In this document: positions 1 to 18,529 of the stretch, one piece after another
How positions within the stretch are numbered: the first letter of the stretch is position 1
Layout of the letters: each line of letters begins with the position of its first letter
Origin: a virus
Taxonomy: Duplodnaviria > Caudoviricetes
Virus record (IMG/VR): IMGVR_UViG_3300035492_000412
Coordinates: 1 to 43,006 of that record
Length of the DNA stretch: 43,006 nt
Strand: one strand, 5' to 3'
Made by a program: the position numbers and the translations under genes
Notes under the pieces: model-generated
What the model was told of the DNA's origin: nothing
The model's database searches: none
Seen by the model: only the letters and a program-made list of their open reading frames with translations

Positions 1-483
1 CTACTTGTTCCAGCCGAACTTCCAGATAAGGTAGGCAACGACGAGCCCCCCGACCACAGTCACAAACCAGGGGTTGCCTGCGAACCTTACCAGGGGTGGC
101 AAACCAGCTGCGGCTCCTGGGTGGCCAGTGATGAATTTCCTTGTCACGTCTTCGCCAGCCTCCAAGATATCTGCCGGGTCATAACCGGAGCCGGGACTAA
201 TAAATACGATCCCACTGGATTCACGATTCAGCCTGTCGATCTCGCGAACACTCTTGCTGTGCAGGTCTTCTCGTTCAACTTCGTTACGTTGAGCAGTCCG
301 GACGATGTGAATCTTTCGAATCTGTAGGACCGGAATGATCTCGTTTCCACAGATCAGGCTCGTGCCCTTCTTGTAGGGAATCACCAATTTCGGTTTCAAT
401 TCATTCTCATCGAGGTCTTCAAAGACCTGACGTAACTTGTCAGGCTCTTGCTCGACCGCTATCAGCACTTGGTAAAACGCCAC
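1..483 (-). CDS. Membrane-anchored hypothetical protein (about 160 aa), last visible gene of the QueC-like operon
   Basis: ORF 1..567; GTG at 483 has GGAGG 5 nt upstream and sits just after the QueC-like stop (497). C-terminal hydrophobic helix NPWFVTVVGGLVVAYLIWKFGW. Visibly lower GC than the phage genes. Confidence 0.7.
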   Translation of the reverse strand: MAFYQVLIAVEQEPDKLRQVFEDLDENELKPKLVIPYKKGTSLICGNEIIPVLQIRKIHIVRTAQRNEVEREDLHSKSVREIDRLNRESSGIVFISPGSGYDPADILEAGEDVTRKFITGHPGAAAGLPPLVRFAGNPWFVTVVGGLVVAYLIWKFGWNK

Positions 484-496
484 TGGATCCTCCGCC

Positions 497-2635
497 TCAA
501 CCATTCGTGACAGGCCGCACATCCCAAACGATGGGCACCTCAGGTCGGTAGCCCACCACGTCGCCACGCTTGATGCTGTTGTCTAGGTGTTCTGCCAGCG
601 GCTTGTCGTACTTCGCAATCTGCTTGATGGCACGGTCGACGGCGTTGCGGAAGGCGTCCCGGACGTTCTTCCGCTTGTCCCCAGCCTTGCGTTGCCGCCC
701 TCCGAGGCCTTTGCCACCTTCCATCGCTTTGGTCAGGAAAGCCATTTCCTCCTCGATCTCCTCGATGCGGGCGTGGTCACCAGCATCGCGAGCCTCCTCA
801 ATCTCGCCCAGCAGCTCGCGGGCTCGCTGCTGCCACTCGCGTAGGGCTTGCCTGTCTGCGACGTCTCCCGCATCGCCCAGAGGAACGCCTTGGGTCACTT
901 GGAAGCCCTCCTCAATATCTTCCGGTGCCACCCCGGTGTTGGCAGGCAGATCAATGGCGTTGGCCGCGCTTCCAACAGCAATCTCATAGACCGATGTCTC
1001 CCGATCCGGGAACGCCAGCAACAGGTTGATGTACTCGGCTCCCTTGTCTACGCCCTGGATCAGGATGGTGTGTCGTCCCCGACCTTGAAACCGTGCCTCC
1101 CAGACACCACCGCGCTTTCGGAAAATGTTGTCTGGCAGCTTCTCGGCCGAGACCACGGCGGGCATCGAGATTACCGAACCGGACTCATAGGCCGTCCGAA
1201 GCAGGCAGTCGCCTGGGAGCGTGCGTTCACGAATCTCCCTGCTGTAGCGACTGAGCAGATCATCCAATGCCCCCATCACCTCGTTGGCATGCCGCTTGTA
1301 GAGATCGAACACCCGCTGTGCAGCCTGCCCAGCTTTGTCGTAGTTCAGATACTTGAAGACCCGGCCCACGTCGGGGTAGCTGGTGACGAACTGCGCCACA
1401 TCCGTAAGGCCTTTCACCTGATTTGCTCGCTCCAGATAGGCTGCCGCCATGATCTTGTCCACGTTCTTCTTCTGATCTTGGGCATCGCGGCTCTGGGTGA
1501 ACACGTCGAACTTGTAGTGTTCGGCCGGGTCGTGCTGGTCAGCCTTGGCAGCGAGAACGGCAAATCGGCGGTCGATGCATTGCGAGCAGCCTCCGCAGTG
1601 GGTGTGCTGGTTTGTCATCTCCCAGGTGTGGGTGCAGGTCATCGAATGCTTGATCAGGTCGTGGCAACCAGCGTCCGTGATGACCTTGACGACGTCCGCC
1701 TTCGTTTTCCAGATGTAGAGGTTCTCGACTGCGAAGGGCTCACCTGCCACCAATGAAAGCAGGTCTTGGAAGCCTTTCATCACTCTCGGGTGCGTTGTCC
1801 TTGTGGCACGACCGCCGACCACCTGAGCGCAAACCGGAAGATTCAGGCTGATGACGCCGTTCTCGTAGAAGCGGACACTCTTGAGGTTGAGCATCCGGGC
1901 AATCGTCGCACCGATGGAGACGTACAGGAACGACCGGCTGCGCTGTGTGTACTCGTGGTTCAGTTCTTTGGTCTTGTGGACGCGAACGGTAATGCGGTGT
2001 GGCTCGTTGTCGCCTGCTTTCGCGGCCAGCATCTCTTCGAGTACGCGGTGTCGCTTATTGAGCTTGGAGGTCGACTTGTGGGTGACCAAGAGCACGCGCC
2101 GCTTCTGGTTCACAACCTCATCGATGGCACCAGCCAGAGAGTCCAGCCCGCCTGAGAACATCACCACCTGCTCCGGCATCCCGTACATCTGCTGGGTGTC
2201 ATTGAACTCGAGGTACTCCTGGAACTGGTGATCCTGGTCGAGTTTGACGAAGTCGAACTGGTACTGGTCGTCGGACAGGAACCCTAGCGTTGAGCACAGC
2301 GTTTCCTGGACCTCCGCACTGTTCCAAAAATCGGGATTGCGCACCGGAACCACAAAGTGCAGGTCGCGCCGCCAGCCATCACCAAAGGAATCGACATCGT
2401 CCGCACCTCGTTTGACCACCTGATCAGCGCTGTAGACGTAGGTGGCTATCTCCAGCAGGTCGTGAAACAGCGGCGGAACGCCACAAAACATTTTGGTGTG
2501 GACGTCTTCGATGCGCAGGGTGATGTTGCCGTGCCCGGCCTTGCCGGAGAGCCGCAGCCGCAGGTCGCGCGAGGGATCTTCGCTGATGCCTTTTGCAGAC
2601 GCGTTGCCGCACAGAACGTATCGCTTACCTTGCAT
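497..2635 (-). CDS. QueC-family (QatC-like) PP-loop enzyme with a C-terminal extension of about 210 aa, probably DNA-binding
   Basis: PP-loop FSGGLDS; QatC-type motifs DLLEIATYVYSAD, GWRRDL, RSRSFLY, ENGVISLNLP, TRTTHP, KTKADV; Zn site C..HCGGCSQCIDRR. Overlaps the upstream gene by 11 nt. Confidence 0.85.
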   Translation of the reverse strand: MQGKRYVLCGNASAKGISEDPSRDLRLRLSGKAGHGNITLRIEDVHTKMFCGVPPLFHDLLEIATYVYSADQVVKRGADDVDSFGDGWRRDLHFVVPVRNPDFWNSAEVQETLCSTLGFLSDDQYQFDFVKLDQDHQFQEYLEFNDTQQMYGMPEQVVMFSGGLDSLAGAIDEVVNQKRRVLLVTHKSTSKLNKRHRVLEEMLAAKAGDNEPHRITVRVHKTKELNHEYTQRSRSFLYVSIGATIARMLNLKSVRFYENGVISLNLPVCAQVVGGRATRTTHPRVMKGFQDLLSLVAGEPFAVENLYIWKTKADVVKVITDAGCHDLIKHSMTCTHTWEMTNQHTHCGGCSQCIDRRFAVLAAKADQHDPAEHYKFDVFTQSRDAQDQKKNVDKIMAAAYLERANQVKGLTDVAQFVTSYPDVGRVFKYLNYDKAGQAAQRVFDLYKRHANEVMGALDDLLSRYSREIRERTLPGDCLLRTAYESGSVISMPAVVSAEKLPDNIFRKRGGVWEARFQGRGRHTILIQGVDKGAEYINLLLAFPDRETSVYEIAVGSAANAIDLPANTGVAPEDIEEGFQVTQGVPLGDAGDVADRQALREWQQRARELLGEIEEARDAGDHARIEEIEEEMAFLTKAMEGGKGLGGRQRKAGDKRKNVRDAFRNAVDRAIKQIAKYDKPLAEHLDNSIKRGDVVGYRPEVPIVWDVRPVTNG

Positions 2636-3413
2636 CGCTGCGCGCCCCCGCTTTCAACTCGTCCTTCATCTTTTTCAGCGCATAGCCTGCGAATCCGTCC
2701 GACGATTTTCTGGAAATATCACCGCCCTCATGAAACCGGTGCTTTGAGAACCACTCGCTTGAAAACTTCTCGACGATGACCGACGCCTCTCGGGTGTGGG
2801 TCTCCAGAGCTGCATTGAACTGGGCCGATTGATTCATCGTCGCAAAGCGCATTCCATCGCCAAGCTGGGTGTTTACGACCTTGCTCAGGAAATATTGCAG
2901 CCCTTCATTGGCCAGCCGGGCAAAAAATCGCCGGGAGAAGTCGCCAAACTCCTTCGGCTTGCCCAAGTCTGCGAGCGCCGCCCGCATCGTGTCCGGGTCG
3001 GACGAAAAGAGTGATTGCAGTTTGGGCGCGAGGACATCGTTGACGGCACCGACGATGGCCCGATTGGCAAGGCCTCCGAGGTCGGATCGCTGGCCATTGC
3101 CCTCTACGCGCCGATCAAGTGCCTCCGTGATCGCCGTGGTCACATCGATGAGGGAGGGGTCGGCAGGTAGATGGATGCCCGCTGCCGCAAGGTGCTGGTG
3201 GATATCGGGTTTCTTGGCGGCAATGGCCATCTGGGTCATCAGCCAAACGGCCTCGGTGTAGCCCACATCGTCCATCACGAAGGAGAAGGCCTTTTCGGCC
3301 GCCGTGATGGTGGCATTGGCGATTTGGGAGACGTCAGCACCGGCGGCGATCAGTTCGACGACCTCCTTCCACGCCTTCGTTCTTGGCAGTACCCCGAGCC
3401 GAACGTGCCCCAT
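2625..3413 (-). CDS. Helical hypothetical protein starting MGH; positional equivalent of QatB (putative QueC partner/substrate)
   Basis: 262-aa ORF, AAGGGG RBS, ATG-GGG start, stop overlaps the QueC-like start. Function inferred only from position, size and Gly2. Confidence 0.75.
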   Translation of the reverse strand: MGHVRLGVLPRTKAWKEVVELIAAGADVSQIANATITAAEKAFSFVMDDVGYTEAVWLMTQMAIAAKKPDIHQHLAAAGIHLPADPSLIDVTTAITEALDRRVEGNGQRSDLGGLANRAIVGAVNDVLAPKLQSLFSSDPDTMRAALADLGKPKEFGDFSRRFFARLANEGLQYFLSKVVNTQLGDGMRFATMNQSAQFNAALETHTREASVIVEKFSSEWFSKHRFHEGGDISRKSSDGFAGYALKKMKDELKAGARSDAR

Positions 3414-3448
3414 CCAGGATTCCCCTTGTTGAAATCAAAGCATCGCGG

Positions 3449-3682
3449 TCATTCGTTGCGCTTCAAGATCACGATGCTCCGTGCCTTTTTTTCTTCTTTC
3501 CTCAAATACCCCTTGCGTACCAACTGCGCGATTTGTTCATGAGCGCTGGCGTGGCTGATGGCTAGCGCTTCGGCCAATTCCTTGACAGTGGGCGGCAGGC
3601 CCGTGCTGTCGAGGATCTGGCAAATCGCCCTCAGCGTTCTGGTCTGCGGCTCAGTAATGCCTTCGGTCTTTCGCTTGCTCAT
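3449..3682 (-). CDS. LexA-type winged-helix DNA-binding protein without a peptidase domain
   Basis: ITEPQ..L..I......GLPPTVKELAEALAISHASAHEQIAQLVRKGYLRK..KKARSI matches the LexA N-terminal domain pattern; AAGGAG RBS; only 77 aa. Confidence 0.85.
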   Translation of the reverse strand: MSKRKTEGITEPQTRTLRAICQILDSTGLPPTVKELAEALAISHASAHEQIAQLVRKGYLRKEEKKARSIVILKRNE

Positions 3683-3707
3683 GGCATTGCTCCTTGCCGA
3701 TTTGCAT

Positions 3708-3736
3708 AATATATGACCTGATGAAAATCAGGTCAA
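3708..3736 (-). promoter_or_regulatory. sigma70 promoter overlapped by a perfect palindromic operator
   Basis: Minus strand TTGACC (3736-3731), 17 bp, TATATT (3713-3708). Inverted repeat TGACCTGAT-GAAA-ATCAGGTCA at 3714-3735 covers the spacer and -35. Confidence 0.75.
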
Positions 3737-3771
3737 TGGAGGCGACCCAGCGCAGAAAATCTCTGGCCCGA

Positions 3772-4296
3772 CTACGGGCGTGAGGAGCGACGCCAGTCCC
3801 AAGGAGCTATCGGATCGCCATCGCGCCACAGCCCGGCGTGGCGGTCGCGCGCCTCCTGCTCAGCGAACTCGTAGGCACCGGCATCCTCGGCGGACTGCTC
3901 CCGTGCGTACTGGCGGTACCACCAAGCCATCCCGGTTGTGATCTGTGCCAGCCCTGCGTCCAGTGTCTTCGGACACGTGCGTGCGGTGCAGGAAGGGTTG
4001 GCGACCAGTACCTTGCCAACAAGCCGCCCGTAGCGGTCGCGCTTGCTGCTCATCACGACGACGTCTTTGCCGAACACTAGGTCGGACATCGACGCCTTGG
4101 ATCGCTGCCCGAATGCCTGCTTCTTCTCCGGCGCATCGATCCCTGCCACCCGGATCTTGTACTGCGTCCTATCCGCATCGAGGACGGTGACCGTGTCGCC
4201 GTCGGCCACGCCAACCACTCGACCCGTGATGGTCTCCGCACTGGCACTCCACGCCGCCAGGGCGATCAACGTCGCACAGAAAAATCTCCTCGAAAT
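3772..4296 (-). CDS. Thermonuclease (SNase-like) family protein with signal peptide
   Basis: VADGDTV, IRVAGIDAPE, DRYGRLVG, EQEAR...GLW motifs; signal peptide RRFFCATLIALAAWSASA. Start uncertain: ORF is open to 4494, and the best RBS (GGGAG) precedes an ATT at 4296. Confidence 0.85.
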   Translation of the reverse strand: MSRRFFCATLIALAAWSASAETITGRVVGVADGDTVTVLDADRTQYKIRVAGIDAPEKKQAFGQRSKASMSDLVFGKDVVVMSSKRDRYGRLVGKVLVANPSCTARTCPKTLDAGLAQITTGMAWWYRQYAREQSAEDAGAYEFAEQEARDRHAGLWRDGDPIAPWDWRRSSRP

Positions 4297-4393
4297 CTCG
4301 CTCTCCCTATCTGATGCACGCTGAAACGGGATACCCCGACCGCCCTGTGTGCATATTCTTCGTAACGGTCTGACAACTTTACTGGCTACCGAA

Positions 4394-4582
4394 ATGACCG
4401 TCGAACAAACACTCCCTGAATTGATGTCACCTCGACAACGGGCACGCGAGGCCGCAGAAATCATCGCGGCCGCCATCGCGCGCTTGCATTCCACGCGTCC
4501 ACAAGACAGCGATATTCCACTTGGCTTCTCGGCATCCGAGCGCGTTCATACAAACCCCTCTACAGAAGGAGTTTTCAAATGA
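4394..4582 (+). CDS. Small hypothetical protein heading the recombinase operon
   Basis: ORF 4349..4582 with ATG at 4394; stop overlaps the next start (ATGA). Confidence 0.55.
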   Translation: MTVEQTLPELMSPRQRAREAAEIIAAAIARLHSTRPQDSDIPLGFSASERVHTNPSTEGVFK

Positions 4583-5040
4583 ACGCACCAATAACACCAC
4601 CCTCTCTGGCCGCGCAAATCGCCAATCTGCCCAAACTGGCTATGAAAGATTTGTGGGCGGTTTGGGACAAGTATTTCCCGCAGCGACCACCCCACCATAA
4701 CCGGGCCTATGTCGAAGGCCGCGTCGCCTACAAGATTCAGGAGGAGGCGCTGGGCACCGCGCTGCTCGTGCAGACACAAATGGCACGGATCGGCGAAGCT
4801 CAATCCAACATCAAGACGCAGCGCGGCGTGGAAGTTCAGGTCATTCCCGGCACGGTGCTGGTGCGGGAATTTGACAACCGCGAACACCGCGTCACCGCGC
4901 AGGCGGACGGCTCCTTTGAATACGAAGGCCGCCGCTTCAAGAGCTTGTCGGGAGTCGCCCGCCACATCACCGGCACCCAGTGGTCAGGGCCGCTGTTTTT
5001 CGGAATCACCAAGAACAAACAGAAGCGAGGTGCCAAGTGA
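4579..5040 (+). CDS. DUF2924-like protein (recombinase-associated)
   Basis: AYKIQE, PGTVLVREF, FEYEGRRFKSLSGVARHITGTQWSGPLFFG pattern; directly upstream of the serine recombinase. Confidence 0.8.
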   Translation: MNAPITPPSLAAQIANLPKLAMKDLWAVWDKYFPQRPPHHNRAYVEGRVAYKIQEEALGTALLVQTQMARIGEAQSNIKTQRGVEVQVIPGTVLVREFDNREHRVTAQADGSFEYEGRRFKSLSGVARHITGTQWSGPLFFGITKNKQKRGAK

Positions 5041-6404
5041 ACACCGTCGTGACCAAGAAACGATGCGCCGTCTACACCCGTGTCTCGACGGACGAGCGCC
5101 TTGACCAATCCTTCAACTCCCTCGACGCTCAGCGCGAGGCCGGCCAAGCCTACATCGTCAGCCAGCGTGCGGAGGGCTGGTTGCCGGTGGGCGACGACTA
5201 CGACGATGGTGGCTACTCGGGCGGCAACATGGAGCGCCCGGCATTGAAGCGCCTGATGGCCGACATCATGGCCGACCAGATCGACATCGTGGTGGTCTAC
5301 AAAATTGACCGCCTGACGCGCAGCCTGACCGATTTTTCCAAGCTGGTGGAGGTGTTTGAGCGGCACAAGGTGTCGTTCGTGTCAGTGACCCAGCAGTTCA
5401 ACACCACCACGTCGATGGGCAGGCTGATGCTCAACATCCTGCTGTCCTTCGCACAATTCGAACGCGAGGTCACGGGCGAACGCATCCGCGACAAGATTGC
5501 GGCCAGCAAGCGCAAGGGCCTATGGATGGGGGGCTACACGCCGCTTGGGTACGAGGTCAAAGACCGCAAGCTGGTCATCGAGGAGAAGGACGCCGCAACC
5601 ATTCGGCGCATCTTCACGCGCTTCACTGAAACGCGCTGTATCACGGACATCATCCGCGAGATGGCCCTGGAGGGAATTACCACCAAGCCCAACCGGCTGA
5701 AGGACGGCAGCGTGCGCAACGGCACGCCGATGGACAAGAAGTACATCTCCAAGGTGCTGCGCAACCCGATCTACGTTGGCGAAATTCGCCACAAGGGGAC
5801 GGTTTTTGCTGGACAGCACGAGCCGATCATCACCCGGCAGTTGTGGGATCGGGTGCAGGACATCCTGTCTGAGGACGCGCACCAGCGCATGGGCAAGACC
5901 CAGACCCGGCACAAGACCGACGCGTTGTTGCGCGGCCTGATGTACGGCCCTGATGGTGGCAAGTACCACATCACCTACAGCAAGAAGCCCTCGGGCAAGA
6001 AGTACCGCTACTACATCCCCAAGGCGGACAGCCGCTACGGCTACCGCAGCAGCGCCACCGGGATGATCCCTGCCGACCAGATCGAGGAGGTGGTGGTGAA
6101 TCTGCTGGTGGGGGCGCTCCAGTCGCCCGAAAGCATCCAAGGGGTCTGGAACACAGTGCGCAGCAAGTATCCGGAGATCGACGAGCCGACCACCGTGCTG
6201 GCCATGCGCCGCCTCGGGGAGGTCTGGAAGCAGTTGTTCCCCGCTGAGCAGGTGCGGCTGGTCAACCTGCTGATCGAGCGCGTCCAGCTCCTCTCCGATG
6301 GCGTCGACATCGTCTGGCGCGAGTCGGGATGGCGGGATCTGGTCGGTGAGTTGCAGGCGGACAGCATTGGGGGCGAGCTGCTGGAAATGGAGGTGGCCCC
6401 ATGA
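5037..6404 (+). CDS. Large serine recombinase (integrase)
   Basis: CAVYTRVST catalytic Ser motif, YDDGGYSGGNMERPAL, DRLTRS, FAQFERE, recombinase domain NPIYVG; GTG start overlapping the previous stop. Confidence 0.92.
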   Translation: MNTVVTKKRCAVYTRVSTDERLDQSFNSLDAQREAGQAYIVSQRAEGWLPVGDDYDDGGYSGGNMERPALKRLMADIMADQIDIVVVYKIDRLTRSLTDFSKLVEVFERHKVSFVSVTQQFNTTTSMGRLMLNILLSFAQFEREVTGERIRDKIAASKRKGLWMGGYTPLGYEVKDRKLVIEEKDAATIRRIFTRFTETRCITDIIREMALEGITTKPNRLKDGSVRNGTPMDKKYISKVLRNPIYVGEIRHKGTVFAGQHEPIITRQLWDRVQDILSEDAHQRMGKTQTRHKTDALLRGLMYGPDGGKYHITYSKKPSGKKYRYYIPKADSRYGYRSSATGMIPADQIEEVVVNLLVGALQSPESIQGVWNTVRSKYPEIDEPTTVLAMRRLGEVWKQLFPAEQVRLVNLLIERVQLLSDGVDIVWRESGWRDLVGELQADSIGGELLEMEVAP

Positions 6405-6877
6405 ACCGCTCGTCCAAGAAGCTGGTCGGTGATGGCAAACCCCACGAGCGCCGCCACCCGCTGGAAGGCGGCGGTGTCCGGATCACTACTTTCGTGCCGT
6501 TTCATTTCAAGAAGCGCGGCATCAAGAAGGTGATCGTCGCCCCGGAAGGCGTCAGCCAGCCGATTGCCATCACCGATACCCCGGTGCTCACCCCCGAACA
6601 GGATCGCCCGCTGCTGAAGGCGCTGGGGCGAGGTATCTACTGGCAGCAGTTGATCGACAACGGGACGGTGGCCAGCGGCACCGAGATCGCTGAACGCGAG
6701 TGTATCCACCGTTCCACGGTCAACGATCTGCTGCGGCTGGCGCTTCTCGCCCCCGACATCATCCAGGCCGCCTACGAAGGACGGCTGCCTCGGGCAGTGT
6801 CTCTGGAAGCCATCCTGCGGGCCAAGGTGCCCTTGGACTGGAATGAGCAACGCCGGTTGATCGCGTCCCTCGGTTAG
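6401..6877 (+). CDS. Recombinase-associated hypothetical protein with HTH-like segment
   Basis: Coupled to the recombinase (ATGA overlap); IAERECIHRSTVNDLLRLALLAPDII HTH-like motif. Confidence 0.7.
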   Translation: MNRSSKKLVGDGKPHERRHPLEGGGVRITTFVPFHFKKRGIKKVIVAPEGVSQPIAITDTPVLTPEQDRPLLKALGRGIYWQQLIDNGTVASGTEIAERECIHRSTVNDLLRLALLAPDIIQAAYEGRLPRAVSLEAILRAKVPLDWNEQRRLIASLG

Positions 6878-6903
6878 CGAGGGTCTCGCAGAAATATTTT
6901 TCG

Positions 6904-6941
6904 GCTACGCCAAAAGTAGCTGTTGCTACGCCGGATGTAGC
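6904..6941. promoter_or_regulatory. Two tandem palindromic operator-like sites GCTAC-N7-GTAGC
   Basis: GCTACgccaaaaGTAGC (6904-6920) and GCTACgccggatGTAGC (6925-6941), 21 bp apart, intergenic, upstream of the early operon. Confidence 0.6.
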
Positions 6942-7035
6942 GCCTTCCCCGATGAAGGCGTGAACCGGCATCAACGGTCAGTACAGGACTGGCCACCGGT
7001 CGCGCCCCAATCCCTGAACGGGAAGGAGCACGGCA

Positions 7036-7347
7036 ATGGCCTATTCAATGGCACTGTCAGGAGGCTTCGGTGGCACACCGGGCCTCAATTCCGGCGTCGG
7101 ATTCAGTTCGACGCCCACCCCTGAATCAGCAGCGCTGTCCCAGCGGCGATTCCTCAGCGAGGTCGAGCTCGCCAACCGCTGGGGCATGTCCCCAAAGACG
7201 CTCACGCGCTGGCGCGGCATGGGTCGGGGCCCTGTCTTCAACAAGTTTTCGAAGAAGGTGGCTTATCCCCTCGATGGCGAGAACGGTGTGCTCGATTACG
7301 AGAAGCGTCACGTCTACGCGTCGACGTCTGAACGTGTACCGGTGTGA
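7036..7347 (+). CDS. AlpA/excisionase-like HTH DNA-binding protein
   Basis: FLSEVELANRWGMSPKTLTRWR..GRGPVF.K...V.Y; AAGGAG RBS. Confidence 0.8.
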   Translation: MAYSMALSGGFGGTPGLNSGVGFSSTPTPESAALSQRRFLSEVELANRWGMSPKTLTRWRGMGRGPVFNKFSKKVAYPLDGENGVLDYEKRHVYASTSERVPV

Positions 7348-7358
7348 GGAGAGCAGCC

Positions 7359-7841
7359 ATGAAAGAACTGACTCTCTATCCGGCCGACCTCGCGAGCATG
7401 ACCGTCGCTCAACTGGCGGCCGCGCCGATCCAGGATTTATTGGACGCCGAGCGCAATGTCGACGAGGCCATCGCATTTCTCAAGCCACTGCGCGCCAAGC
7501 TGGATGCCGCCAAGCTCCAGCGCTACGGCGAACAGGCCCGAACTGCACTGCGTGACTCCGGCCGCGACTTCGGCACCGCCCACGTCAGCGACGGTGCGCT
7601 GCACGTCAAGTACGAGGTCCCCAAAAAGGTGACCTGGAACCAGACCATCCTCAAGGAGATGGCCGAGCGTATCGTCGCTTCGGGCGACAAGGTCGAGGAT
7701 TACATCGACATCAAGTTGTCGGTATCCGAGTCTCGCTATACCAACTGGCCCACGGCGCTGCAGGAGCAGTTCGCCGCCGCGCGCACCGTAGAGGAAGGTA
7801 AGCCGACCATCACCCTGACGCTCGATGGGAGTGCCGCATGA
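7359..7841 (+). CDS. Conserved phage hypothetical protein
   Basis: GAGGAG RBS, ATG 7359, stop overlapping the next start; operon context. Confidence 0.7.
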   Translation: MKELTLYPADLASMTVAQLAAAPIQDLLDAERNVDEAIAFLKPLRAKLDAAKLQRYGEQARTALRDSGRDFGTAHVSDGALHVKYEVPKKVTWNQTILKEMAERIVASGDKVEDYIDIKLSVSESRYTNWPTALQEQFAAARTVEEGKPTITLTLDGSAA

Positions 7842-8686
7842 AAAAGCTCCCCATCGTGTCCGCCATCGAGCGGATGGCCGAGCGCAAGGGCGTGAAGCTG
7901 CTGATGCTGGGCAAGTCCGGCATCGGAAAAACCACGCGGCTCAAAGACCTCGACCCGGCCACCACGCTGTTCCTCGACATCGAGGCCGGAGACTTGGCGG
8001 TGGCCGACTGGCCGGGCGACACCATCCGTCCGGCTTCGTGGCCGGAGAGCCGCGACTTCTTCGTGTTCCTCGCGGGCCCGGACAAGTCACTGCCGCCTGA
8101 GAGCGCGTTCTCGCAGGCGCACTACGACCACGTCATCGAGAAGTTTGGCGACCCGGCGCAACTCGACCGCTACCAGACCTTCTTCCTCGACTCGATCACG
8201 CAGCTGTCCCGTCAGTGCTTCGCGTGGTGCAAGACGCAACCGGGTGCCGTCAGCGACCGCTCCGGCAAGCCCGACCTGCGCGCGGCCTATGGCCTGCTCG
8301 GCCAGGAAATGATCAGCGCATTGACCCATTTGCAGCACGCACGGGGCAAGAACGTGGTGTTCGTGGCGATCCTCGACGAACGCCTCGATGACTACAACCG
8401 CAAGGTGTTCGTCCCGCAGATCGAAGGCAGCAAAACAAGTCTGGAGCTGCCCGGCATCGTGGACGAGGTCGTGACGTTGGCCGAGATCAAGGCCGAGGAT
8501 GGCAGCACCTACCGCGCCTTCGTCACGCACACCGTCAATCCCTACGGCTTTCCGGCCAAAGACCGCAGCGGTCGCCTCGACCTACTGGAGCCGCCGCATC
8601 TCGGCGCGCTGATCGCAAAGTGCGCGGGTACATCCATCACGCCCGCCAGCGCCACCACCACGACCCCCACTGAATCCCAGGAGTAA
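7838..8686 (+). CDS. AAA_24 / Sak4-like ATPase (single-strand annealing recombinase candidate)
   Basis: Walker A GKSGIGKT, LFLDIEAG, Walker B FFLDSIT, C-terminal AKDRSG; followed by an SSB-like gene. Confidence 0.8.
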   Translation: MKKLPIVSAIERMAERKGVKLLMLGKSGIGKTTRLKDLDPATTLFLDIEAGDLAVADWPGDTIRPASWPESRDFFVFLAGPDKSLPPESAFSQAHYDHVIEKFGDPAQLDRYQTFFLDSITQLSRQCFAWCKTQPGAVSDRSGKPDLRAAYGLLGQEMISALTHLQHARGKNVVFVAILDERLDDYNRKVFVPQIEGSKTSLELPGIVDEVVTLAEIKAEDGSTYRAFVTHTVNPYGFPAKDRSGRLDLLEPPHLGALIAKCAGTSITPASATTTTPTESQE

Positions 8687-8691
8687 TCGCC

Positions 8692-9318
8692 ATGTCTTCC
8701 AACTACTTTGATTTTCAGGATGCCGATCCCCAACAGTCTGGCTTCGACCCGATTCCCAAGGGCGTCATCGCGCCGATGCGCATGATCTTGAAGCCGGGCG
8801 GCTATGACGATCCCAGCCAGGGCTGGACGGGTGGTTATGCAACCCAGTCGTTCGACACCGGCGCGATTTACCTTTCCGCCGAGTTTGTGGTCACTGGCGG
8901 TGACTACGTGAAGCGCAAGCTTTGGTCGAACATCGGGCTGTACTCGCCCAAGGGTCCGACCTGGGGCCAGATGGGGCGCAGCTTCATCCGCGCTGCACTC
9001 AACAGCGCCCGCAACGTCCACCCGCAGGACAACAGCCCCCAGGCTGCAGCCGCGCGTCGCATCCAAGGCTTCCACGAGCTGGATGGCCTGGAGTTCCTCG
9101 CCCGCGTCGACATCGAGAAGGACGGCAAAGGCCAGGACCGCAACGTGGTCAAGGTCGCAGTCGAACCCGACCACCCCGACTATGTCAAGTTGATGGGTGT
9201 GCCGACCAAGGCTTCGGGTGGCGGCACCTCCGGCGCTCCGGCGCAGGCAGCGCCCGCGTATCAGGCCCCGGCTCCGCAGCGCGCACCCGTGACGGGCAAA
9301 CCGTCGTGGGCGCAGTGA
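8692..9318 (+). CDS. Phage ssDNA-binding-like protein (DUF669-type)
   Basis: Position after the Sak4-like gene; beta-rich core, Ala/Pro-rich linker and terminal PSWAQ. Confidence 0.6.
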   Translation: MSSNYFDFQDADPQQSGFDPIPKGVIAPMRMILKPGGYDDPSQGWTGGYATQSFDTGAIYLSAEFVVTGGDYVKRKLWSNIGLYSPKGPTWGQMGRSFIRAALNSARNVHPQDNSPQAAAARRIQGFHELDGLEFLARVDIEKDGKGQDRNVVKVAVEPDHPDYVKLMGVPTKASGGGTSGAPAQAAPAYQAPAPQRAPVTGKPSWAQ

Positions 9319-9329
9319 GGGAGGTCGCC

Positions 9330-10184
9330 ATGAACGCATCCATGCTCACAGCCAGCCACTACGGCGTCGTGCATTTCGGCGATCTCGACTGCGAGGCGGT
9401 CGTGCTCACCACCGGCGAGCGCGGCTACGTCCGCAAGGAACTGGCCAAGCTCCTCGGTTTCCACGAATCGCACAAGGGTGGCCGTTTCGCCCGTTTTTTG
9501 GCCGAAATCGCGCCTAACTCATTGTCTTTATTGGAGAAATCATCCGGGCCGATTTTGCTGCCATCGGGACGCCAGACCCAGTTCTTCCCTGCAGGCATCA
9601 TCGCGGACGTGGCCACTTCCGTGGTGGACGCGGCCATCGCGGGCACGCTGCACCGCGCTCGCCAGGGCATCGTCGGTAACTGCCTGACGATCATGCGGGC
9701 GCTGGCTACCACCGGCGAGGTCGCGCTGATCGATGAGGCCACCGGCTACCAGCACCACCGCGCACCGGATGCGCTGCAGGAGTTGATCTCCAAACTGCTG
9801 CGCCAGTCCTGCGCATCGTGGGAGCGCCGCTTCCATCCGGACTACTACCGCGCCATCTATCGGTTGTTCGGCTGGAAATACCAGGGTCACGATCAGAACC
9901 CTCCTCACGTCGTCGGCCAGATCACGCTGCGCTGGGTGTACGGGCCGGTGCTCCCGGAGGACTTGCTGGGCGAGATTCGCAATCGCAAGGGCATCTCGCA
10001 GAAGCACCACCAGTGGCTGTCCGATCAGGGGCTCGCGCATCTGGAATCGCAGATTCACGCGGTCACGGCCATTGCGCGCAGCTCAATGAGCTATCCCGAC
10101 TTCAAGCGCCGCTGCGAGGCCGCCTTTGCTGGCGCTGCCCTGCAGTTGGGCCTGCTGCTCGATGAACTCGAGGAAGGGGCGTGA
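9330..10184 (+). CDS. P63C domain-containing protein
   Basis: ALIDEATGYQ and WERRFHPDYYRAIYRL..W...P..VG.IT..WVY motifs; GGAGG RBS before ATG 9330. Confidence 0.8.
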   Translation: MNASMLTASHYGVVHFGDLDCEAVVLTTGERGYVRKELAKLLGFHESHKGGRFARFLAEIAPNSLSLLEKSSGPILLPSGRQTQFFPAGIIADVATSVVDAAIAGTLHRARQGIVGNCLTIMRALATTGEVALIDEATGYQHHRAPDALQELISKLLRQSCASWERRFHPDYYRAIYRLFGWKYQGHDQNPPHVVGQITLRWVYGPVLPEDLLGEIRNRKGISQKHHQWLSDQGLAHLESQIHAVTAIARSSMSYPDFKRRCEAAFAGAALQLGLLLDELEEGA

Positions 10185-10681
10185 AATGCTGGGTCTGCAA
10201 ACGACAGGCCCGGGGCTACGGCCACACCGACAACCGCCACGGTGTGGGCGATCCCCGGCGCTATCCCATCGATTGGGTGTTCTGCTCGCGTCGCTGCCAG
10301 GAGGCGTTTCACGCGCTGTACGGCAACTGGCAGCGGGCCAAGGAAGGTCACATCGACAACTCGGAGGTCGCCATGATCGATCCGTCTGATGTCGAACTGG
10401 CCGCGATGAAGAAGTGCCTCAAGGCCTTCGGCGAGGCAGCGGGCGAGATCGGCTTCACCAAGCCGCTGGGCGATTACTCCGAGGCCGAGGCCCTGCAGGT
10501 AATCGACGCCATCGTCACTTGCTGGTCGGACGCAATGGTCGCGCACCACGAGTCCAGCAAGTTTCCACCCGTGCGGGGCTTGTCGCCCACTCCCGATCCG
10601 CTGGCACCCGAAGCCGCCAACCCGTTCGCGGATCTGGAGGACGACCTGCCCTGGGAAGAACCGAAGGGGAAGAGGCCATGA
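10181..10681 (+). CDS. Zn-finger plus DUF6511-like phage protein
   Basis: CWVC...FCSRRC; C-terminal DLEDDLPW; GTGA overlap with the previous stop. Confidence 0.65.
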   Translation: MKCWVCKRQARGYGHTDNRHGVGDPRRYPIDWVFCSRRCQEAFHALYGNWQRAKEGHIDNSEVAMIDPSDVELAAMKKCLKAFGEAAGEIGFTKPLGDYSEAEALQVIDAIVTCWSDAMVAHHESSKFPPVRGLSPTPDPLAPEAANPFADLEDDLPWEEPKGKRP

Positions 10682-11412
10682 TGGACTTCAATTCCTCATC
10701 GAGCATCGCGGGCCAGGTCACCGCCCTGGTCGACGCCGGGTTGCAGCAGGCCCGTGCCCGCCAGTCTGAGCGCCAGTACCTCGGGGCCTCGCGCCTCGGG
10801 GTGGCTTGCGAGCGTGCGCTGCAGTTCGAGTACGCCAAGGCTCCCATCGACCACGGGCGGGACGCACCGGGCCGGATGCTGCGCATCTTCGAGCGCGGCC
10901 ACGTCATGGAGGACTGCATGGTCGCTTGGCTACGGGACGCGGGTTTCGACCTGCGCACCCGCAAGGCTGACGGCGAGCAGTTTGGTTTCTCGGTGGCCGA
11001 TGGTCGCCTTCAGGGTCACGTTGACGGTGTCATCGTCGCGGGCCCGGAAGGCTTCGCTTATCCCGCGCTCTGGGAGTGCAAGTGCCTGGGCAACAAGTCC
11101 TGGAACGACCTGGAGAAAAAGGGCCTGGCCATCTCCAAGCCCATCTACGCCGCGCAAGTGGCGATCTACCAGGCCTATCTCGAACTGCACGAGCACCCGG
11201 CGATCTTCACGGCGCTCAACGCCGACACCATGGAGATCTACACCGAGCTTGTGCCCTTTGACGCGGCGCTGGCCCAACGCATGTCGGATCGGGCAGTGAA
11301 GGTCATCACGGCGACCGAGGCAGGCGAGCTGCTGCCACGCGTCTTCCACGACTCGAACCACTTCGAATGCCGGATGTGCGCGTGGCAAGACCGCTGCCGG
11401 AGGACGCAATGA
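10678..11412 (+). CDS. PD-(D/E)XK exonuclease (Cas4-like phage nuclease)
   Basis: YLGASRLG..C, GHVDG, LWECK, YAAQVAIYQ, terminal CRMCAWQDRC cysteine cluster. Confidence 0.8.
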   Translation: MMDFNSSSSIAGQVTALVDAGLQQARARQSERQYLGASRLGVACERALQFEYAKAPIDHGRDAPGRMLRIFERGHVMEDCMVAWLRDAGFDLRTRKADGEQFGFSVADGRLQGHVDGVIVAGPEGFAYPALWECKCLGNKSWNDLEKKGLAISKPIYAAQVAIYQAYLELHEHPAIFTALNADTMEIYTELVPFDAALAQRMSDRAVKVITATEAGELLPRVFHDSNHFECRMCAWQDRCRRTQ

Positions 11413-11621
11413 ACCATACCCAATCACAAGCACCAGCGGCGGAACCGATGGTGGGGGCACGCCACGCTGCCCGCCTGCTCAATCTTCCGCCGTACTACTT
11501 CACCAAGCCTCGGTGCCGCGTCTCCAAGCGCATTCCTCACTACCGGGTTGGCCAGATGGTTCGCTTCCGGATGTCGGAACTCAGGGCATGGGCGGTCACG
11601 CAAGGAGGCGTGCATGAGTGA
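11409..11621 (+). CDS. Small excisionase-like HTH protein
   Basis: AARLLNLP...RIPHYRVGQMVRFRMSELRAW; ATGA overlap. Confidence 0.7.
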   Translation: MNHTQSQAPAAEPMVGARHAARLLNLPPYYFTKPRCRVSKRIPHYRVGQMVRFRMSELRAWAVTQGGVHE

Positions 11622-12210
11622 CTACCGTGTCCGCATCTCCGTGCGCAATGCCCGGCTGCTGCGTGCCATCGAGCGGGCGGGTCACAGGCCGGGCGCACCA
11701 TTCGCTGCCGCCGTCGGCATCAGCTACTACGGGGCGCTGTTGCCATACATCAACCTCACTCGCTCGCCGCTGACGCCGGATGGTTTGCTGCGGGAATGCG
11801 CGTGGAACCTGTGCGACTTCCTGAACGCATCACCCTCAGACCTGTGGTCGGATGCCCAACTCCAGCCGCTGGAAACGAACCACTCTAGCATTGATCTGGA
11901 TGCAGACAGCGTGCAAGCACTGGCCTGTGGAACGGCGTCTGCCGACCCGTTGCGGCTGGCCAGCCACGCGCAGGCAGGGCGAATCATTCAGGATGCCCTC
12001 GATTCGCTGACGCCGCGTGAGGCGGACGTGATCCGCGAGCGCTTCTTTGTCGGCTCGTCGCTCGACGAGATCGCCGAGAAGATGGAGGTCACGCGCGAGC
12101 GCGTCAGCCAGATTGAGGGAAAGGCTCTGCGCAAGTTGCGCCACGAATCTCGCATCCCGCACGAGCTGGCCGGTATCGCCGATGTGATCGGAGGTGCCAC
12201 CGATGCTTGA
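11614..12210 (+). CDS. Regulator with XRE-like N-terminus and sigma70 region 4 C-terminus
   Basis: LDSLTPREADVIRERF...SLDEIAEKMEVTRERVSQIEGKALRKLRH closely follows RpoD region 4.2; AGGAGG RBS. Confidence 0.8.
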   Translation: MSDYRVRISVRNARLLRAIERAGHRPGAPFAAAVGISYYGALLPYINLTRSPLTPDGLLRECAWNLCDFLNASPSDLWSDAQLQPLETNHSSIDLDADSVQALACGTASADPLRLASHAQAGRIIQDALDSLTPREADVIRERFFVGSSLDEIAEKMEVTRERVSQIEGKALRKLRHESRIPHELAGIADVIGGATDA

Positions 12211-15854: not shown

Positions 15855-17270
15855 TTGAACACGCTCAACGTCGAGTACCGCAAGGTCGAGGCGCTGATTC
15901 CCTATGCCCGCAATCCGCGCACGCACGCCGAGGGTCAAATCGCCAAGATCGCGGCCAGTATCGTCGAGTACGGCTGGACTAACCCGATCCTGGTCGATGG
16001 CGACAACGGCATCATCGCCGGACACGGGCGTCTAGCCGCTGCCCGCAAGCTCGGACTGGATCAGGTGCCGGTGATCGAACTGGCTCATCTGACCGTCGCT
16101 CAGAAACGCGCGCTGGTGATCGCCGACAATCGGCTGGCGCTGGATGCGGGCTGGGACGAGGAGATGCTGGCCCTCGAGCTGGCCGATTTGTCCGACGCCG
16201 GGTACGACCTGGCACTTACCGGGTTCGAGGATGCCGAGATCGAGGCACTGCTCACCAGTGAGGTGACCGACGACGATTCCGCTCCGGATTCCGACGCCGA
16301 GGAACCGGACGCCACAGACGACGTGCCGGGTGTACCGGCCGTGGCGGTGTCTCGCCCCGGTGATGTCTGGGCGATTGGACCGCACCGCCTGATCTGTGGC
16401 GACGCCACCGACCGGGAGGTGGTCGCTGCGCTGATGCAAGGCGATGCCGCGCGGCTGTGCTTCACCTCGCCGCCCTACGGCAACCAGCGCGACTACACCT
16501 CGGGCGGCATCTCCGATTGGGACGGTCTGATGCGCGGCGTCTTCGCGCACCTGCCGATGGCGGGCGACGGTCAGGTGCTGGTCAACCTCGGCCTGATCCA
16601 CCGCGACAACGAGGTGATCCCGTATTGGGACGCGTGGCTCGGCTGGATGCGCAGCCAGGGCTGGCGGCGCTTCGCGTGGTACGTCTGGGATCAGGGCCCG
16701 GGGATGCCCGGCGACTGGGCAGGCCGCTTCGCCCCGAGCTTCGAGTTCGTCTTCCACTTCAACCGCGAAAGCCGCAAGCCGAACAAGATCGTGCCCTGCA
16801 AGCACGCCGGGCAGGAATCGCACCTGCGCGCCGATGGCTCGTCCACGGCGATGCGTGGCAAGGATGGCGAGGTGGGTGGCTGGACGCACAAGGGCCAGCC
16901 GACACAGGACACCCGCATCCCCGACAGCGTGATCCGCGTGATGCGCCATAAGGGCAAGATCGGTCAGGACATCGATCACCCCGCCGTGTTCCCGGTCGCG
17001 CTGCCGGAGTTCGTGATCGAGGCCTACAGCGACGCTGGCGACATCGTGTTCGAACCCTTCGGCGGCAGCGGAACGACGATGCTCGCCGCCGAGCGCACGG
17101 GGCGCGTCTGCCGTAGCGTGGAGATCGCCCCGCAGTACGTGGACGTCGCCATCAAACGCTTCCAGCAGAACCACCCCGGCGTACCGGTCACCTTGATCGC
17201 TACCGGTCAGTCCTTCGACCAGGTGGCTGCGGAGCGCGCAACCATCCGGGATGCCGAGGTGGTGGCATGA
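15855..17270 (+). CDS. ParB-N-fused beta-class DNA methyltransferase (SPPY; N4-C or N6-A)
   Basis: ParB-like LIPYARNPRTH...IIAGHGR...ADNRL; FTSPPY; HPAVFP; FEPFGGSGTT. TTG start. Confidence 0.88.
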   Translation: MNTLNVEYRKVEALIPYARNPRTHAEGQIAKIAASIVEYGWTNPILVDGDNGIIAGHGRLAAARKLGLDQVPVIELAHLTVAQKRALVIADNRLALDAGWDEEMLALELADLSDAGYDLALTGFEDAEIEALLTSEVTDDDSAPDSDAEEPDATDDVPGVPAVAVSRPGDVWAIGPHRLICGDATDREVVAALMQGDAARLCFTSPPYGNQRDYTSGGISDWDGLMRGVFAHLPMAGDGQVLVNLGLIHRDNEVIPYWDAWLGWMRSQGWRRFAWYVWDQGPGMPGDWAGRFAPSFEFVFHFNRESRKPNKIVPCKHAGQESHLRADGSSTAMRGKDGEVGGWTHKGQPTQDTRIPDSVIRVMRHKGKIGQDIDHPAVFPVALPEFVIEAYSDAGDIVFEPFGGSGTTMLAAERTGRVCRSVEIAPQYVDVAIKRFQQNHPGVPVTLIATGQSFDQVAAERATIRDAEVVA

Positions 17271-18529
17271 ACTGGCTGGCCGACAAGATTGAACAATGGC
17301 CGACCGGCAAGCTGCTGCCCTACGCCCGTAACGCACGCACCCACTCCGAGGAGCAGGTGGCGCAGATCGCTGCCAGCATCGCCGAGTTCGGATTCACCAA
17401 TCCGATCCTGGCGGGCAGCGACGGCATCATCGTCGCTGGCCACGGAAGGCTGGCCGCCGCCCAGAAACTTGGGCTGGCCGTCGTGCCGGTGGTCGTGCTC
17501 GACCACTTGAGCCCGACCCAACGCAGGGCCTTGGTCATTGCCGACAACCGCATCGCCGAGAACGCCGGCTGGGACGACGCGATGTTGCGGGTCGAACTGG
17601 AAGCCTTGCAGCTGGACGGCTTCGACCTGGACATCACCGGGTTCGACGCCGACGCGCTGGCCGAACTGATCGCAGGCGACGAGCCGGACAACGAGGGGCA
17701 GACCGATGAGGATGCGGTGCCCGAGGTCAGCGAGACACCCATCTCGCGTCCGGGCGACGTCTGGATCATGGGTCAGCACCGACTGCTGTGCGGCGACTCG
17801 ACCGTGGCCGAGAGCTACGACCGGCTGATGCAGGGCGACGCGGCGGACATGGTATTCACCGACCCGCCGTACAACGTGAACTACGCCAACAGCGCCAAGG
17901 ACAAGATGCGCGGCAAGGATCGCGCGATCCTGAACGACAACCTGGGCGACGGTTTCTACGATTTCCTGATGGCGGCATTGACGCCCACCGTGGCGCATTG
18001 CCGGGGCGGGATCTACGTGGCGATGTCCTCCAGCGAACTGGATGTGCTGCAGGCCGCCTTCCGCGCTGCCGGTGGCAAATGGTCGACCTTCATCATCTGG
18101 GCCAAGAACACCTTCACGCTCGGCCGCGCCGACTACCAGCGCCAGTACGAGCCCATCCTCTACGGCTGGCCGGAGGGGGCGACACGCCACTGGTGTGGCG
18201 ACCGCGACCAGGGCGACGTCTGGAACATCAAGAAGCCGCAGAAGAACGACCTGCACCCGACGATGAAGCCGGTGGAGTTGGTCGAGCGCGCGATCCGCAA
18301 TTCGAGCCGCCCTGGCAACGTGGTGCTTGACCCGTTTGGTGGCTCGGGCACGACCTTGATCGCCGCAGAGAAGTCAGGCCGCGTTGCGCGGCTGATCGAA
18401 CTCGACCCCAAGTACGTCGACGTTATCGTGCGCCGGTGGGAGGAGTTCACCGGCAAGCAGGCCACCCGCGAGGCGGATGGTGCGGCGCTCGATCAGGCTG
18501 CGAGTGACTCGTCGAGGATCTCGCAGTGA
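17267..18529 (+). CDS. ParB-N-fused DNA adenine methyltransferase (DPPY)
   Basis: ParB-like N-terminus; FTDPPYNV; HPTMKPV; LDPFGGSGTT. Confidence 0.9.
   Translation: MNWLADKIEQWPTGKLLPYARNARTHSEEQVAQIAASIAEFGFTNPILAGSDGIIVAGHGRLAAAQKLGLAVVPVVVLDHLSPTQRRALVIADNRIAENAGWDDAMLRVELEALQLDGFDLDITGFDADALAELIAGDEPDNEGQTDEDAVPEVSETPISRPGDVWIMGQHRLLCGDSTVAESYDRLMQGDAADMVFTDPPYNVNYANSAKDKMRGKDRAILNDNLGDGFYDFLMAALTPTVAHCRGGIYVAMSSSELDVLQAAFRAAGGKWSTFIIWAKNTFTLGRADYQRQYEPILYGWPEGATRHWCGDRDQGDVWNIKKPQKNDLHPTMKPVELVERAIRNSSRPGNVVLDPFGGSGTTLIAAEKSGRVARLIELDPKYVDVIVRRWEEFTGKQATREADGAALDQAASDSSRISQ

Follow-up and report, generated by a model that had tools for sequence, protein, structure and literature searches.

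A QatB/QatC-like gene pair with a predicted winged-helix tail as a putative switch for the early genes of a lambda-like prophage

A QatB/QatC-like pair at the left end of the prophage

We analyzed the 43-kb virus record IMGVR_UViG_3300035492_000412 (Caudoviricetes; 43,006 nucleotides, referred to here as the window), a lambda-like prophage with genes for a recombinase, primase, terminase, portal, capsid, and tail, and focused on the operon at its left end. Four open reading frames (ORFs) lie there, all on the minus strand, encoding a helix-turn-helix (HTH) protein, a 262-residue protein, a 712-residue enzyme, and ORF4 (Table 1). A first-pass annotation, made from the sequence alone, had described one promoter and operator followed by tightly spaced genes, and this layout was confirmed: the four ORFs stand behind a TTGACC-17-TATATT promoter that encloses a 9-4-9 palindrome. 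It had also proposed a new four-gene, deazaguanylation-based system with a membrane effector, distinct from QatABCD and type IV CBASS. Our analysis retains three of the genes and points to a different role, in which the enzyme and its partner would switch the early genes of the phage at a pair of palindromes, by means of a 222-residue C-terminal tail of the enzyme that the annotation did not describe.

Table 1. Features of the window discussed in the text.
Feature	Position	Strand	Basis
LexA-type winged HTH without peptidase domain, 77 residues	3449..3682	-	LexA_DNA_bind (PF01726), E 2.6e-13; HTH in 56/80 loci
QatB-fold protein, 262 residues, starts MGHVRLG, N-terminal tail of ~10 residues	2625..3413	-	alignment, model, predicted complex
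QatC-like enzyme, QueC-family, 712 residues	497..2635	-	PADLOC QatC, E 2.5e-59
QatC-like PP-loop core, residues 1-490	1166..2635	-	SGGLDS 161-166, TRTTHP 278-283, Zn Cys 334/347/350/353
C-terminal tail of the enzyme, residues 491-712, predicted OmpR/ToxR-type winged helix	497..1165	-	structure model
ORF4, 162 residues, C-terminally anchored; accessory gene in a variable slot	1..489	-	patchy occurrence, GC content
Promoter TTGACC-17-TATATT, sigma-70-type, enclosing the operator palindrome	3708..3736	-	10/12 consensus match
Tandem 17-bp palindromes GCTAC-N7-GTAGC, period 21 bp, before the early genes	6904..6941	+	52/80 loci, 0/240 shuffles
Integration module, divergent: small ORF, DUF2924, large serine recombinase, recombinase-associated gene	4394..6877	+	library scans
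Head of the early operon: excisionase/AlpA-like HTH, unknown gene, Sak4-like annealing protein, phrog_2300 protein	7036..9318	+	ORF list, library scans
SNase-family gene separating the two divergent operons, found in only some relatives	3772..4254	-	PF00565, E 7e-20

The enzyme belongs with QatC. In addition to the PADLOC match, it matched PDB 9vlk, a structure of the qatABCD core, with an E value of 1.7e-29, and the NCBIfam QatC model with 225 bits, which is under the equivalog cut-off of 280. The SGGxDS and cysteine motifs are kept in 72/72 and 39/39 cores. The first-pass description of a QueC-like enzyme with an intact PP-loop and zinc cysteines next to a partner starting with Met-Gly was therefore accurate, given the SGGLDS motif, the four cysteines, an invariant Gly2, and the predicted complex described below.

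The chemistry that had been assigned to the pair fared less well. According to the available text of the Qat papers, on which we rely here and below, T278 and T280 of QatC stand in place of the Tyr/Asp pair that reads the deazaguanine CDG (PMC13279940), and QatC had no activity on CDG or other deazaguanines and did not bind DNA (PMC13376578). The TRTTHP motif of the window enzyme aligns with these two threonines. Because the enzyme has the same T-x-T pocket as QatC, and QatC is inactive with CDG, deazaguanylation is not supported by the sequence of the enzyme. The substrate that QatC joins to QatB and the mode of restriction are stated as open in the available text of the Qat structure papers, in which the reaction was not reconstituted (PMC13279940, PMC13376578, PMC13639016).

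The 262-residue protein was linked to QatB by structure. At the sequence level the link is absent (Pfam, PADLOC, NCBIfam, PHROGs, and PDB profile searches), Foldseek placed QatB 18th with an E value of 0.54, and a wide structural search did not list it. The likeness surfaced solely in a second-look structural alignment, in which the model (predicted local distance difference test [pLDDT] score 78) matched QatB 9y01_A with a Z score of 12.1 and a root-mean-square deviation (rmsd) of 4.1 over 205 aligned residues at 7% identity; the next chain had a Z score of 5.2. The library and structure searches that had been suggested for these proteins thus identified the enzyme as QatC through PADLOC, whereas Foldseek gave no clear link to QatB for the 262-residue protein and no significant match for the tail. 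The Met-Gly-His start is invariant in the alignment of the 262-residue family (46/46) and opens an MGHxRLG N terminus on a tail of about 10 residues; the MGTS motif on a long tail is not found. The two proteins were predicted to form a 1:1 complex with a score of 0.85, against 0.00 for the best of three controls, and the mark used for this score is reached by 116/157 solved complexes and 2/215 mismatched pairs. The runs agreed in at least 83% of contacts, with a partner pLDDT of at least 83, and the predicted interface comprises residues 2-10 of the partner and residues 230-231, 269-278, and 350-352 of the enzyme. This pass may stem from likeness to solved QatBC. Based on the models, we consider the 262-residue protein and the enzyme to be a QatB/QatC homologue pair. 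The proposal of a distinct new system does not hold up in this respect, as QatBC alone has been published as a working unit (available text of PMC13279940).

Compared with the qatABCD core (9y01/9y02, 9vlk, 9zee; PMC13279940, PMC13376578, PMC13639016), the module shares the PP-loop enzyme with SGGxDS, RxRS, ENG, TxTxHP, and four zinc cysteines. It also shares a partner encoded directly upstream, which has a free Gly2 and the helical fold of QatB, together with the overlap of the genes and a predicted 1:1 complex. It differs in that the operon contains neither the KAP NTPase QatA nor the TatD protein QatD. QatB carries MGTS on a tail of 30-90 residues, whereas the window partner has a much shorter N terminus and only 7% identity to QatB. 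Moreover, the window enzyme has its additional tail, and the operon has its own putative LexA-like repressor and is a fixed part of a prophage control region. By its sequence, the module is QatBC-like at the enzyme level and not a member of qatABCD, as QatA, QatD, and the MGTS tail are missing. Type IV CBASS, compared here through descriptions in the available text of the Qat papers, has in common a QueC-family enzyme (Cap9) beside a Gly2 partner (CdnD). The module lacks a CD-NTase and a TGT-like Cap10, has T-x-T in place of the Y/D CDG motif, and has a core of 490 residues as opposed to ~185 in Cap9.

Extent of the conserved module

A GTDB genome scan with the 262-residue family yielded 315 relatives, of which the best 80 were kept as related loci. 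The enzyme core adjoins the 262-residue relative in 77 of these 80. The tail was detected by tblastn in 72, with a diverged tail recognized by eye in two more, and the HTH gene is present in 56. ORF4 was found in only two (2/68 when only loci with enough sequence behind the enzyme are counted). A second, independent set was built around DUF2924 (37 viral loci, 27 with at least 3.5 kb of flank, all at least 86% identical); in it, the HTH gene, partner, core, and tail were present in 27/27 relatives and ORF4 in 2/27. The conserved unit consists of three genes and not four: the HTH, partner, and enzyme genes of the proposed operon are co-conserved, whereas ORF4 lies outside the module. Among the DUF2924-anchored relatives, the module is a fixed core and is not patchy. 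The module occurs in Proteobacteria, Desulfobacterota, Planctomycetota, Verrucomicrobiota, and Acidobacteriota. In one locus (L051:8001-9180), an internal deletion has taken out the final part of the partner together with the enzyme core, and tail sequence remains behind it.

Because only 2/80 and 2/27 relatives have it, we regard ORF4 as a passenger or accessory gene. It ends at base 1 of the window, has a likely GTG start at 489 behind GGAGG, and follows the enzyme gene by 7 bp on the same strand. Its single hydrophobic stretch is C-terminal (residues 142-160, mean hydropathy 1.66), its GC content (52%) is below that of the Qat genes (59%) and of the remaining sequence (65%), and it matched no family in four libraries and only an unnamed Atlas cluster. 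What lies behind the enzyme varies among relatives: the prophage ends there, diverse cargo follows, or, in other phyla, the early genes come next; six loci (L195, L205, L208, L210, L211, and L214) carry differing accessory genes behind the enzyme stop, in the slot that ORF4 occupies in the window. In two near-identical copies (L003 and L004), the enzyme side continues into host genes, so that the suspicion of qatA or qatD lying just beyond the window edge was not confirmed. None of KAP NTPase, TatD, CD-NTase, and TGT was found among 86 hand-picked proteins downstream of the enzyme in related loci, in agreement with the earlier view that the operon is neither QatABCD nor type IV CBASS.

The HTH protein consists of a LexA-type DNA-binding domain only. 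A LexA- or cI-type repressor with a C-terminal S24 peptidase and RecA-triggered cleavage was ruled out, as 77 residues are too few. The operator palindrome TGACCTGAT-N4-ATCAGGTCA (9-4-9) at 3714-3735 lies inside the promoter, and this promoter/operator element was present in 51/56 related loci with the HTH gene and in 0/24 without it. Based on this co-occurrence, the protein likely binds the operator and acts as an autorepressor of the operon.

The tail, the palindrome pair, and swapped C-terminal domains

Residues 491-712 of the enzyme form a separate domain that canonical QatC (465 residues) lacks. Its model (pLDDT 73) runs strand-strand-strand, helix, helix, insert, helix, helix, hairpin, which is the order of a winged helix with an inserted helical hairpin. 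In structural alignments it matched BaeR (4b09; Z 6.2, rmsd 2.9, 96 residues) and ToxR (8b4b_W; Z 6.1, rmsd 3.6, 100 of 110 residues), the two compact full-span matches among the 50 rows listed. According to the model, the tail is likely an OmpR/ToxR-type winged helix with a helical-hairpin insertion, comparable to the HTH-type output domain of OmpR/SARP-type winged-helix regulators. The tail family comprises 14,570 clusters at E ≤ 0.001. Most of 60 tail matches scanned were without a Pfam family; 7 were QueC-like, and single cases carried REC, AAA and GAF, primase-RT, or helicase domains. Plasmid tail matches were an AAA ATPase and a TPR protein, and a STAND-like ATPase fusion was also seen. 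On the evidence of these sequence matches, the tail is a widespread output domain. Matches in the Atlas were to unnamed clusters only, and the tail profile gave no significant match to other C-terminal domains or large slot proteins of the sister prophages considered below.

Some tail proteins fall outside the QatC family. P0447 (1683 residues) is a second defence-type enzyme with the tail, in which a DnaG zinc ribbon and a reverse transcriptase are fused to it. At L099:6076-7443 (also L147), the tail is carried by a 451-residue non-QatC protein and is followed by the palindrome pair and early genes. In L301 (4552-4620) and L302 (3555-3640), where the tail belongs to non-phage regulators (an AAA ATPase and a TPR protein), 17-bp palindromes with a different sequence stand behind the regulator.

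The window carries GCTAC-N7-GTAGC twice, 21 bp apart, outside the coordinates covered by the first-pass annotation. The pair recurs in the related GTDB loci (Table 1) and occurs in 0-2 copies per host genome (five genomes). In Desulfobacterota, Planctomycetota, and Verrucomicrobiota, it closely follows the tail stop and precedes early genes of the sigma-like, AAA_24, and related kinds. In the group of the window, where the operon points in the opposite direction and lies 3 kb off, the pair has remained next to the early genes. A single GCTAC-N7-GTAGC lies near the tail stop in 34/42 and 6/8 cases in non-beta elements, and loci with diverged tails (L080, L293, and L301) keep, as judged by eye, the 17-bp/21-bp geometry with other letters. 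This co-variation suggests that the pair is likely the binding site of the tail.

A pattern-first search matched 99 viral loci. Among the 80 for which flanks were available, a tail lay no more than 6 kb away in 42 (on QatC in 40 of these), another 15 were truncated members of the group of the window, and the other 23 had no tail in the entire record. The use of the pair as a one-to-one marker of the tail was rejected, as the last 23 viral records have the pair without the tail; the tail implies the pair in most cases, but not vice versa. The copies in these records (L093, L097, L106, L114, L121, L126, L130, L137, L138, L141, L146, L154, and others) are near-exact and often lie among structural or lysis genes, sometimes within coding sequence. 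They could possibly be decoys or sites for another protein. In L082 (~5817-5854), the 17-bp unit has grown into a tandem array with a period of 21 bp.

The position of the module was compared with that in sister elements. In 401 genomes of one order, DUF2924 was present in 35 and the 262-residue partner in 4, and the three DUF2924 at ≥88% identity all go with the partner. We took 16 of the more distant DUF2924 prophages (L335-L350) for a slot comparison: Qat genes occupied the slot in 0/16, and Pfam-confirmed XRE and/or Peptidase_M78 in 9/16, often followed by an unannotated protein of 300-760 residues right before an excisionase-like gene. Pairs of XRE and ImmA/IrrE (Peptidase_M78) proteins are induction switches. 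They share with the window module this position, divergent from the recombinase operon, and no domains, and act by proteolysis, as opposed to the ligation predicted for the window module. Among the window ORFs that were scanned, a subset of the total, none was a repressor of the cI type. Several slot proteins of the sister prophages have short repeats behind them; a generic search for 17-bp palindrome pairs found none in the 16 prophages, with a script that had no positive control.

Relatives of the partner are also followed by enzymes with other C-terminal domains. A metagenome scan gave 482 relatives, and among the 80 that were kept, the enzyme carried our tail in 8, a nuclease in 2, and other ends in 35, while 21 ran off the contig and 14 had no enzyme on the contig. 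Visual grouping of 25 of the 35 other ends gave five types with more than one member and six singles; the 10 that were omitted were mostly broken or frameshifted. Pfam identified HTH_3 (E 9e-6) in L252 and, below the cut-off, Trans_reg_C (E 8e-4) in L285, with a weak match also for L276. In every multi-member type, a repeat specific to that type follows the stop; none of the motifs is shared between types, and the GCTAC motif was found in 0/26 loci with swapped domains. HTH_17, primase, or sigma genes come next in several of them, one lying inside a satellite-type integrase-HTH_17-primase element. In a quick tree, differing tails fall within well-supported clades, and the two nuclease rows are long branches.

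The best plasmid match combined a Met-Gly-His partner (profile probability 99) with a QatC core that has a DpnII/MboI-type nuclease domain at its C terminus. This domain (PF18742), with a conserved PD...EAK of the PD-(D/E)xK type, was found in 112/120 listed homologues of the nuclease-fused QatC protein (P0243-P0362), and the partner was confirmed in L219 (4207-6851) and is present in L225 (6001-8644) and L298 (1126-3749). Judged by sequence, this large nuclease-fused sister clade is a candidate two-gene defence system. P0359 (584 residues), with a QatC core of the same family, has PF19960 where the nuclease would be.

A proposed switch, its alternatives, and minor features

We propose that the QatB-fold/QatC-like pair with its winged-helix tail is a sensor-switch for the phage early genes that acts through the palindromes at 6904-6941, a reading to which we give a probability of about 0.62. 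By acting on the operator, the LexA-like protein would keep the operon at a fixed level. QatB would bind QatC with Gly2 near the active site, as predicted here and shown for canonical QatBC. By analogy with the family, QatC would adenylate some carboxylate, probably not CDG, and join it to Gly2, and this joining would shift the state of the fused tail, which would then bind the palindrome pair. The excisionase/replication operon would be switched as a result, and we favor activation over repression by nearly two to one. ORF4 would be a passenger. The link to transcription regulators and prophage decisions that the first-pass annotation had offered beside defence is thus likely to stand, whereas its membrane effector is not, given the rarity of ORF4. 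A known parallel is FseA of ICEMlSymR7A, in which, according to the available text of PMC10359603, an HTH-type output domain is likewise combined with a repeat site before an excisionase gene; in the window, the input is predicted to be a protein-modifying enzyme pair and the tail is not DUF2285.

Several observations weigh against this proposal. For the tail, Z scores of about 6 are common, and many short helical-bundle matches score above BaeR and ToxR; Foldseek gave no match at E < 0.001, a Pfam scan of 42 tails found no Trans_reg_C and no informative match, and the comparison of the tail profile with OmpR-like tails was not significant (probability 1.6). Most of the swapped domains have no Pfam match, and their HTH-like character was called by eye. 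The motifs in the cross-table of types were picked by eye from the same loci, whose members are close kin, so that its diagonal is partly circular. As for the palindromes, 23 viral records with the pair have the tail nowhere (0/23; 0/3 near-complete), the Acidobacteriota loci L048-L050 have the tail and no such pair nearby, and there is no sigma-70 promoter consensus near 6904-7036. Finally, QatBC alone defends against some phages (available text of PMC13279940) and the sister clade has a nuclease, which makes defence possible.

The alternative that survives best, although we consider it unlikely, is that the module is minimal QatBC cargo for defence against superinfection, in which the tail would contribute to defence or do no more than adjust expression, and the palindromes would be incidental or recognized by a different protein. 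In its favor, QatBC without QatA and QatD was sufficient to protect against lambda-vir (available text of PMC13279940), the nuclease takes the place of the tail in the Met-Gly-His sister clade, the operon is located at the end of the prophage, next to a slot with variable cargo, and the pair can occur without the tail. However, the module is fixed and not patchy in 27/27 close relatives, it occupies the position of the XRE/M78 regulators in sister prophages, and one HTH-like domain replaces another at the C terminus of its enzyme, with matching repeats before excision or replication genes.

Quite improbable in our view is an output by antitermination, in which the same sensor would act through a tail that allows read-through of a hairpin at palindrome 2, by RNA binding or by loading at a DNA site. 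A long hairpin does overlap the second palindrome, starting inside it. Most of the 31 distinct variants can form this hairpin, a T-run comes after it in elements from Desulfobacterota and Planctomycetota, and L053 has a compensatory change in it. In both gene arrangements, a transcript that comes from upstream in the same direction enters the hairpin, and the missing promoter consensus behind the pair would fit as well. However, the hairpin of the window has no T-run, and the 21-22 bp period, two turns of DNA, is kept across unrelated letters. In 12/31 variants, the 5-bp stem of the second small hairpin contains 1-2 mismatches, which argues against a two-hairpin RNA site and weakened the model of two small hairpins in RNA.

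The four-gene deazaguanylation system with the membrane protein as effector, as first proposed, is very improbable. ORF4 is probably co-transcribed, given its spacing and strand, but it is replaced by other genes or by the prophage end in nearly all relatives and has a lower GC content, and the T-x-T pocket is that of QatC, which is inactive with CDG in the available text of PMC13376578. A phage QueC for preQ0/queuosine or 7-deazaguanine DNA modification, suggested by a weak Pfam QueC match (E 8.5e-7) and by database names of homologues (7-cyano-7-deazaguanine synthase), is the least probable reading: the enzyme scores far better as QatC, it has 712 residues and QatC motifs in place of the ~220 residues, YxQxH/VPxRN/YPDC motifs, and queD/queE link of canonical QueC, QatC did not complement a queC deletion (both from the available text of PMC13329287), and no folE, queD, queE, or dpdA match was found among the window ORFs scanned.

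If the switch that we favor is correct, a prophage induction switch has been made from an anti-phage module and replaces an XRE/ImmA or cI switch. If the fusion works as we propose, it would also provide a simple reporter of QatC activity for a screen for trigger and substrate, with the nuclease-fused sister clade as a second read-out, and it would concern a tail family of more than 14,000 clusters without a Pfam model. More tentatively, QatBC could be a general infection sensor with a swappable output, in which nuclease fusions defend, DNA-binding fusions, acquired repeatedly, let prophages and satellites excise and replicate upon an incoming phage, and operator copies in unrelated phages serve as decoys against the switch. 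In the open-licence literature we found no account of a QatBC-tail variant, the tail, the operator, or a QueC-nuclease fusion; supplements on Qat and the QueC family may list such architectures.

Elsewhere in the window, the excisionase/AlpA-like HTH at the head of the early operon was named by eye and has no Pfam match, and an Rfam scan of positions 1-12000 gave nothing meaningful. Two ParB-methyltransferase fusion genes lie in tandem at 15855-18529. Toward its 3′ end, the small ORF before DUF2924 (4394-4582) is strongly conserved at the nucleotide level, and this stretch is also seen in distant relatives.

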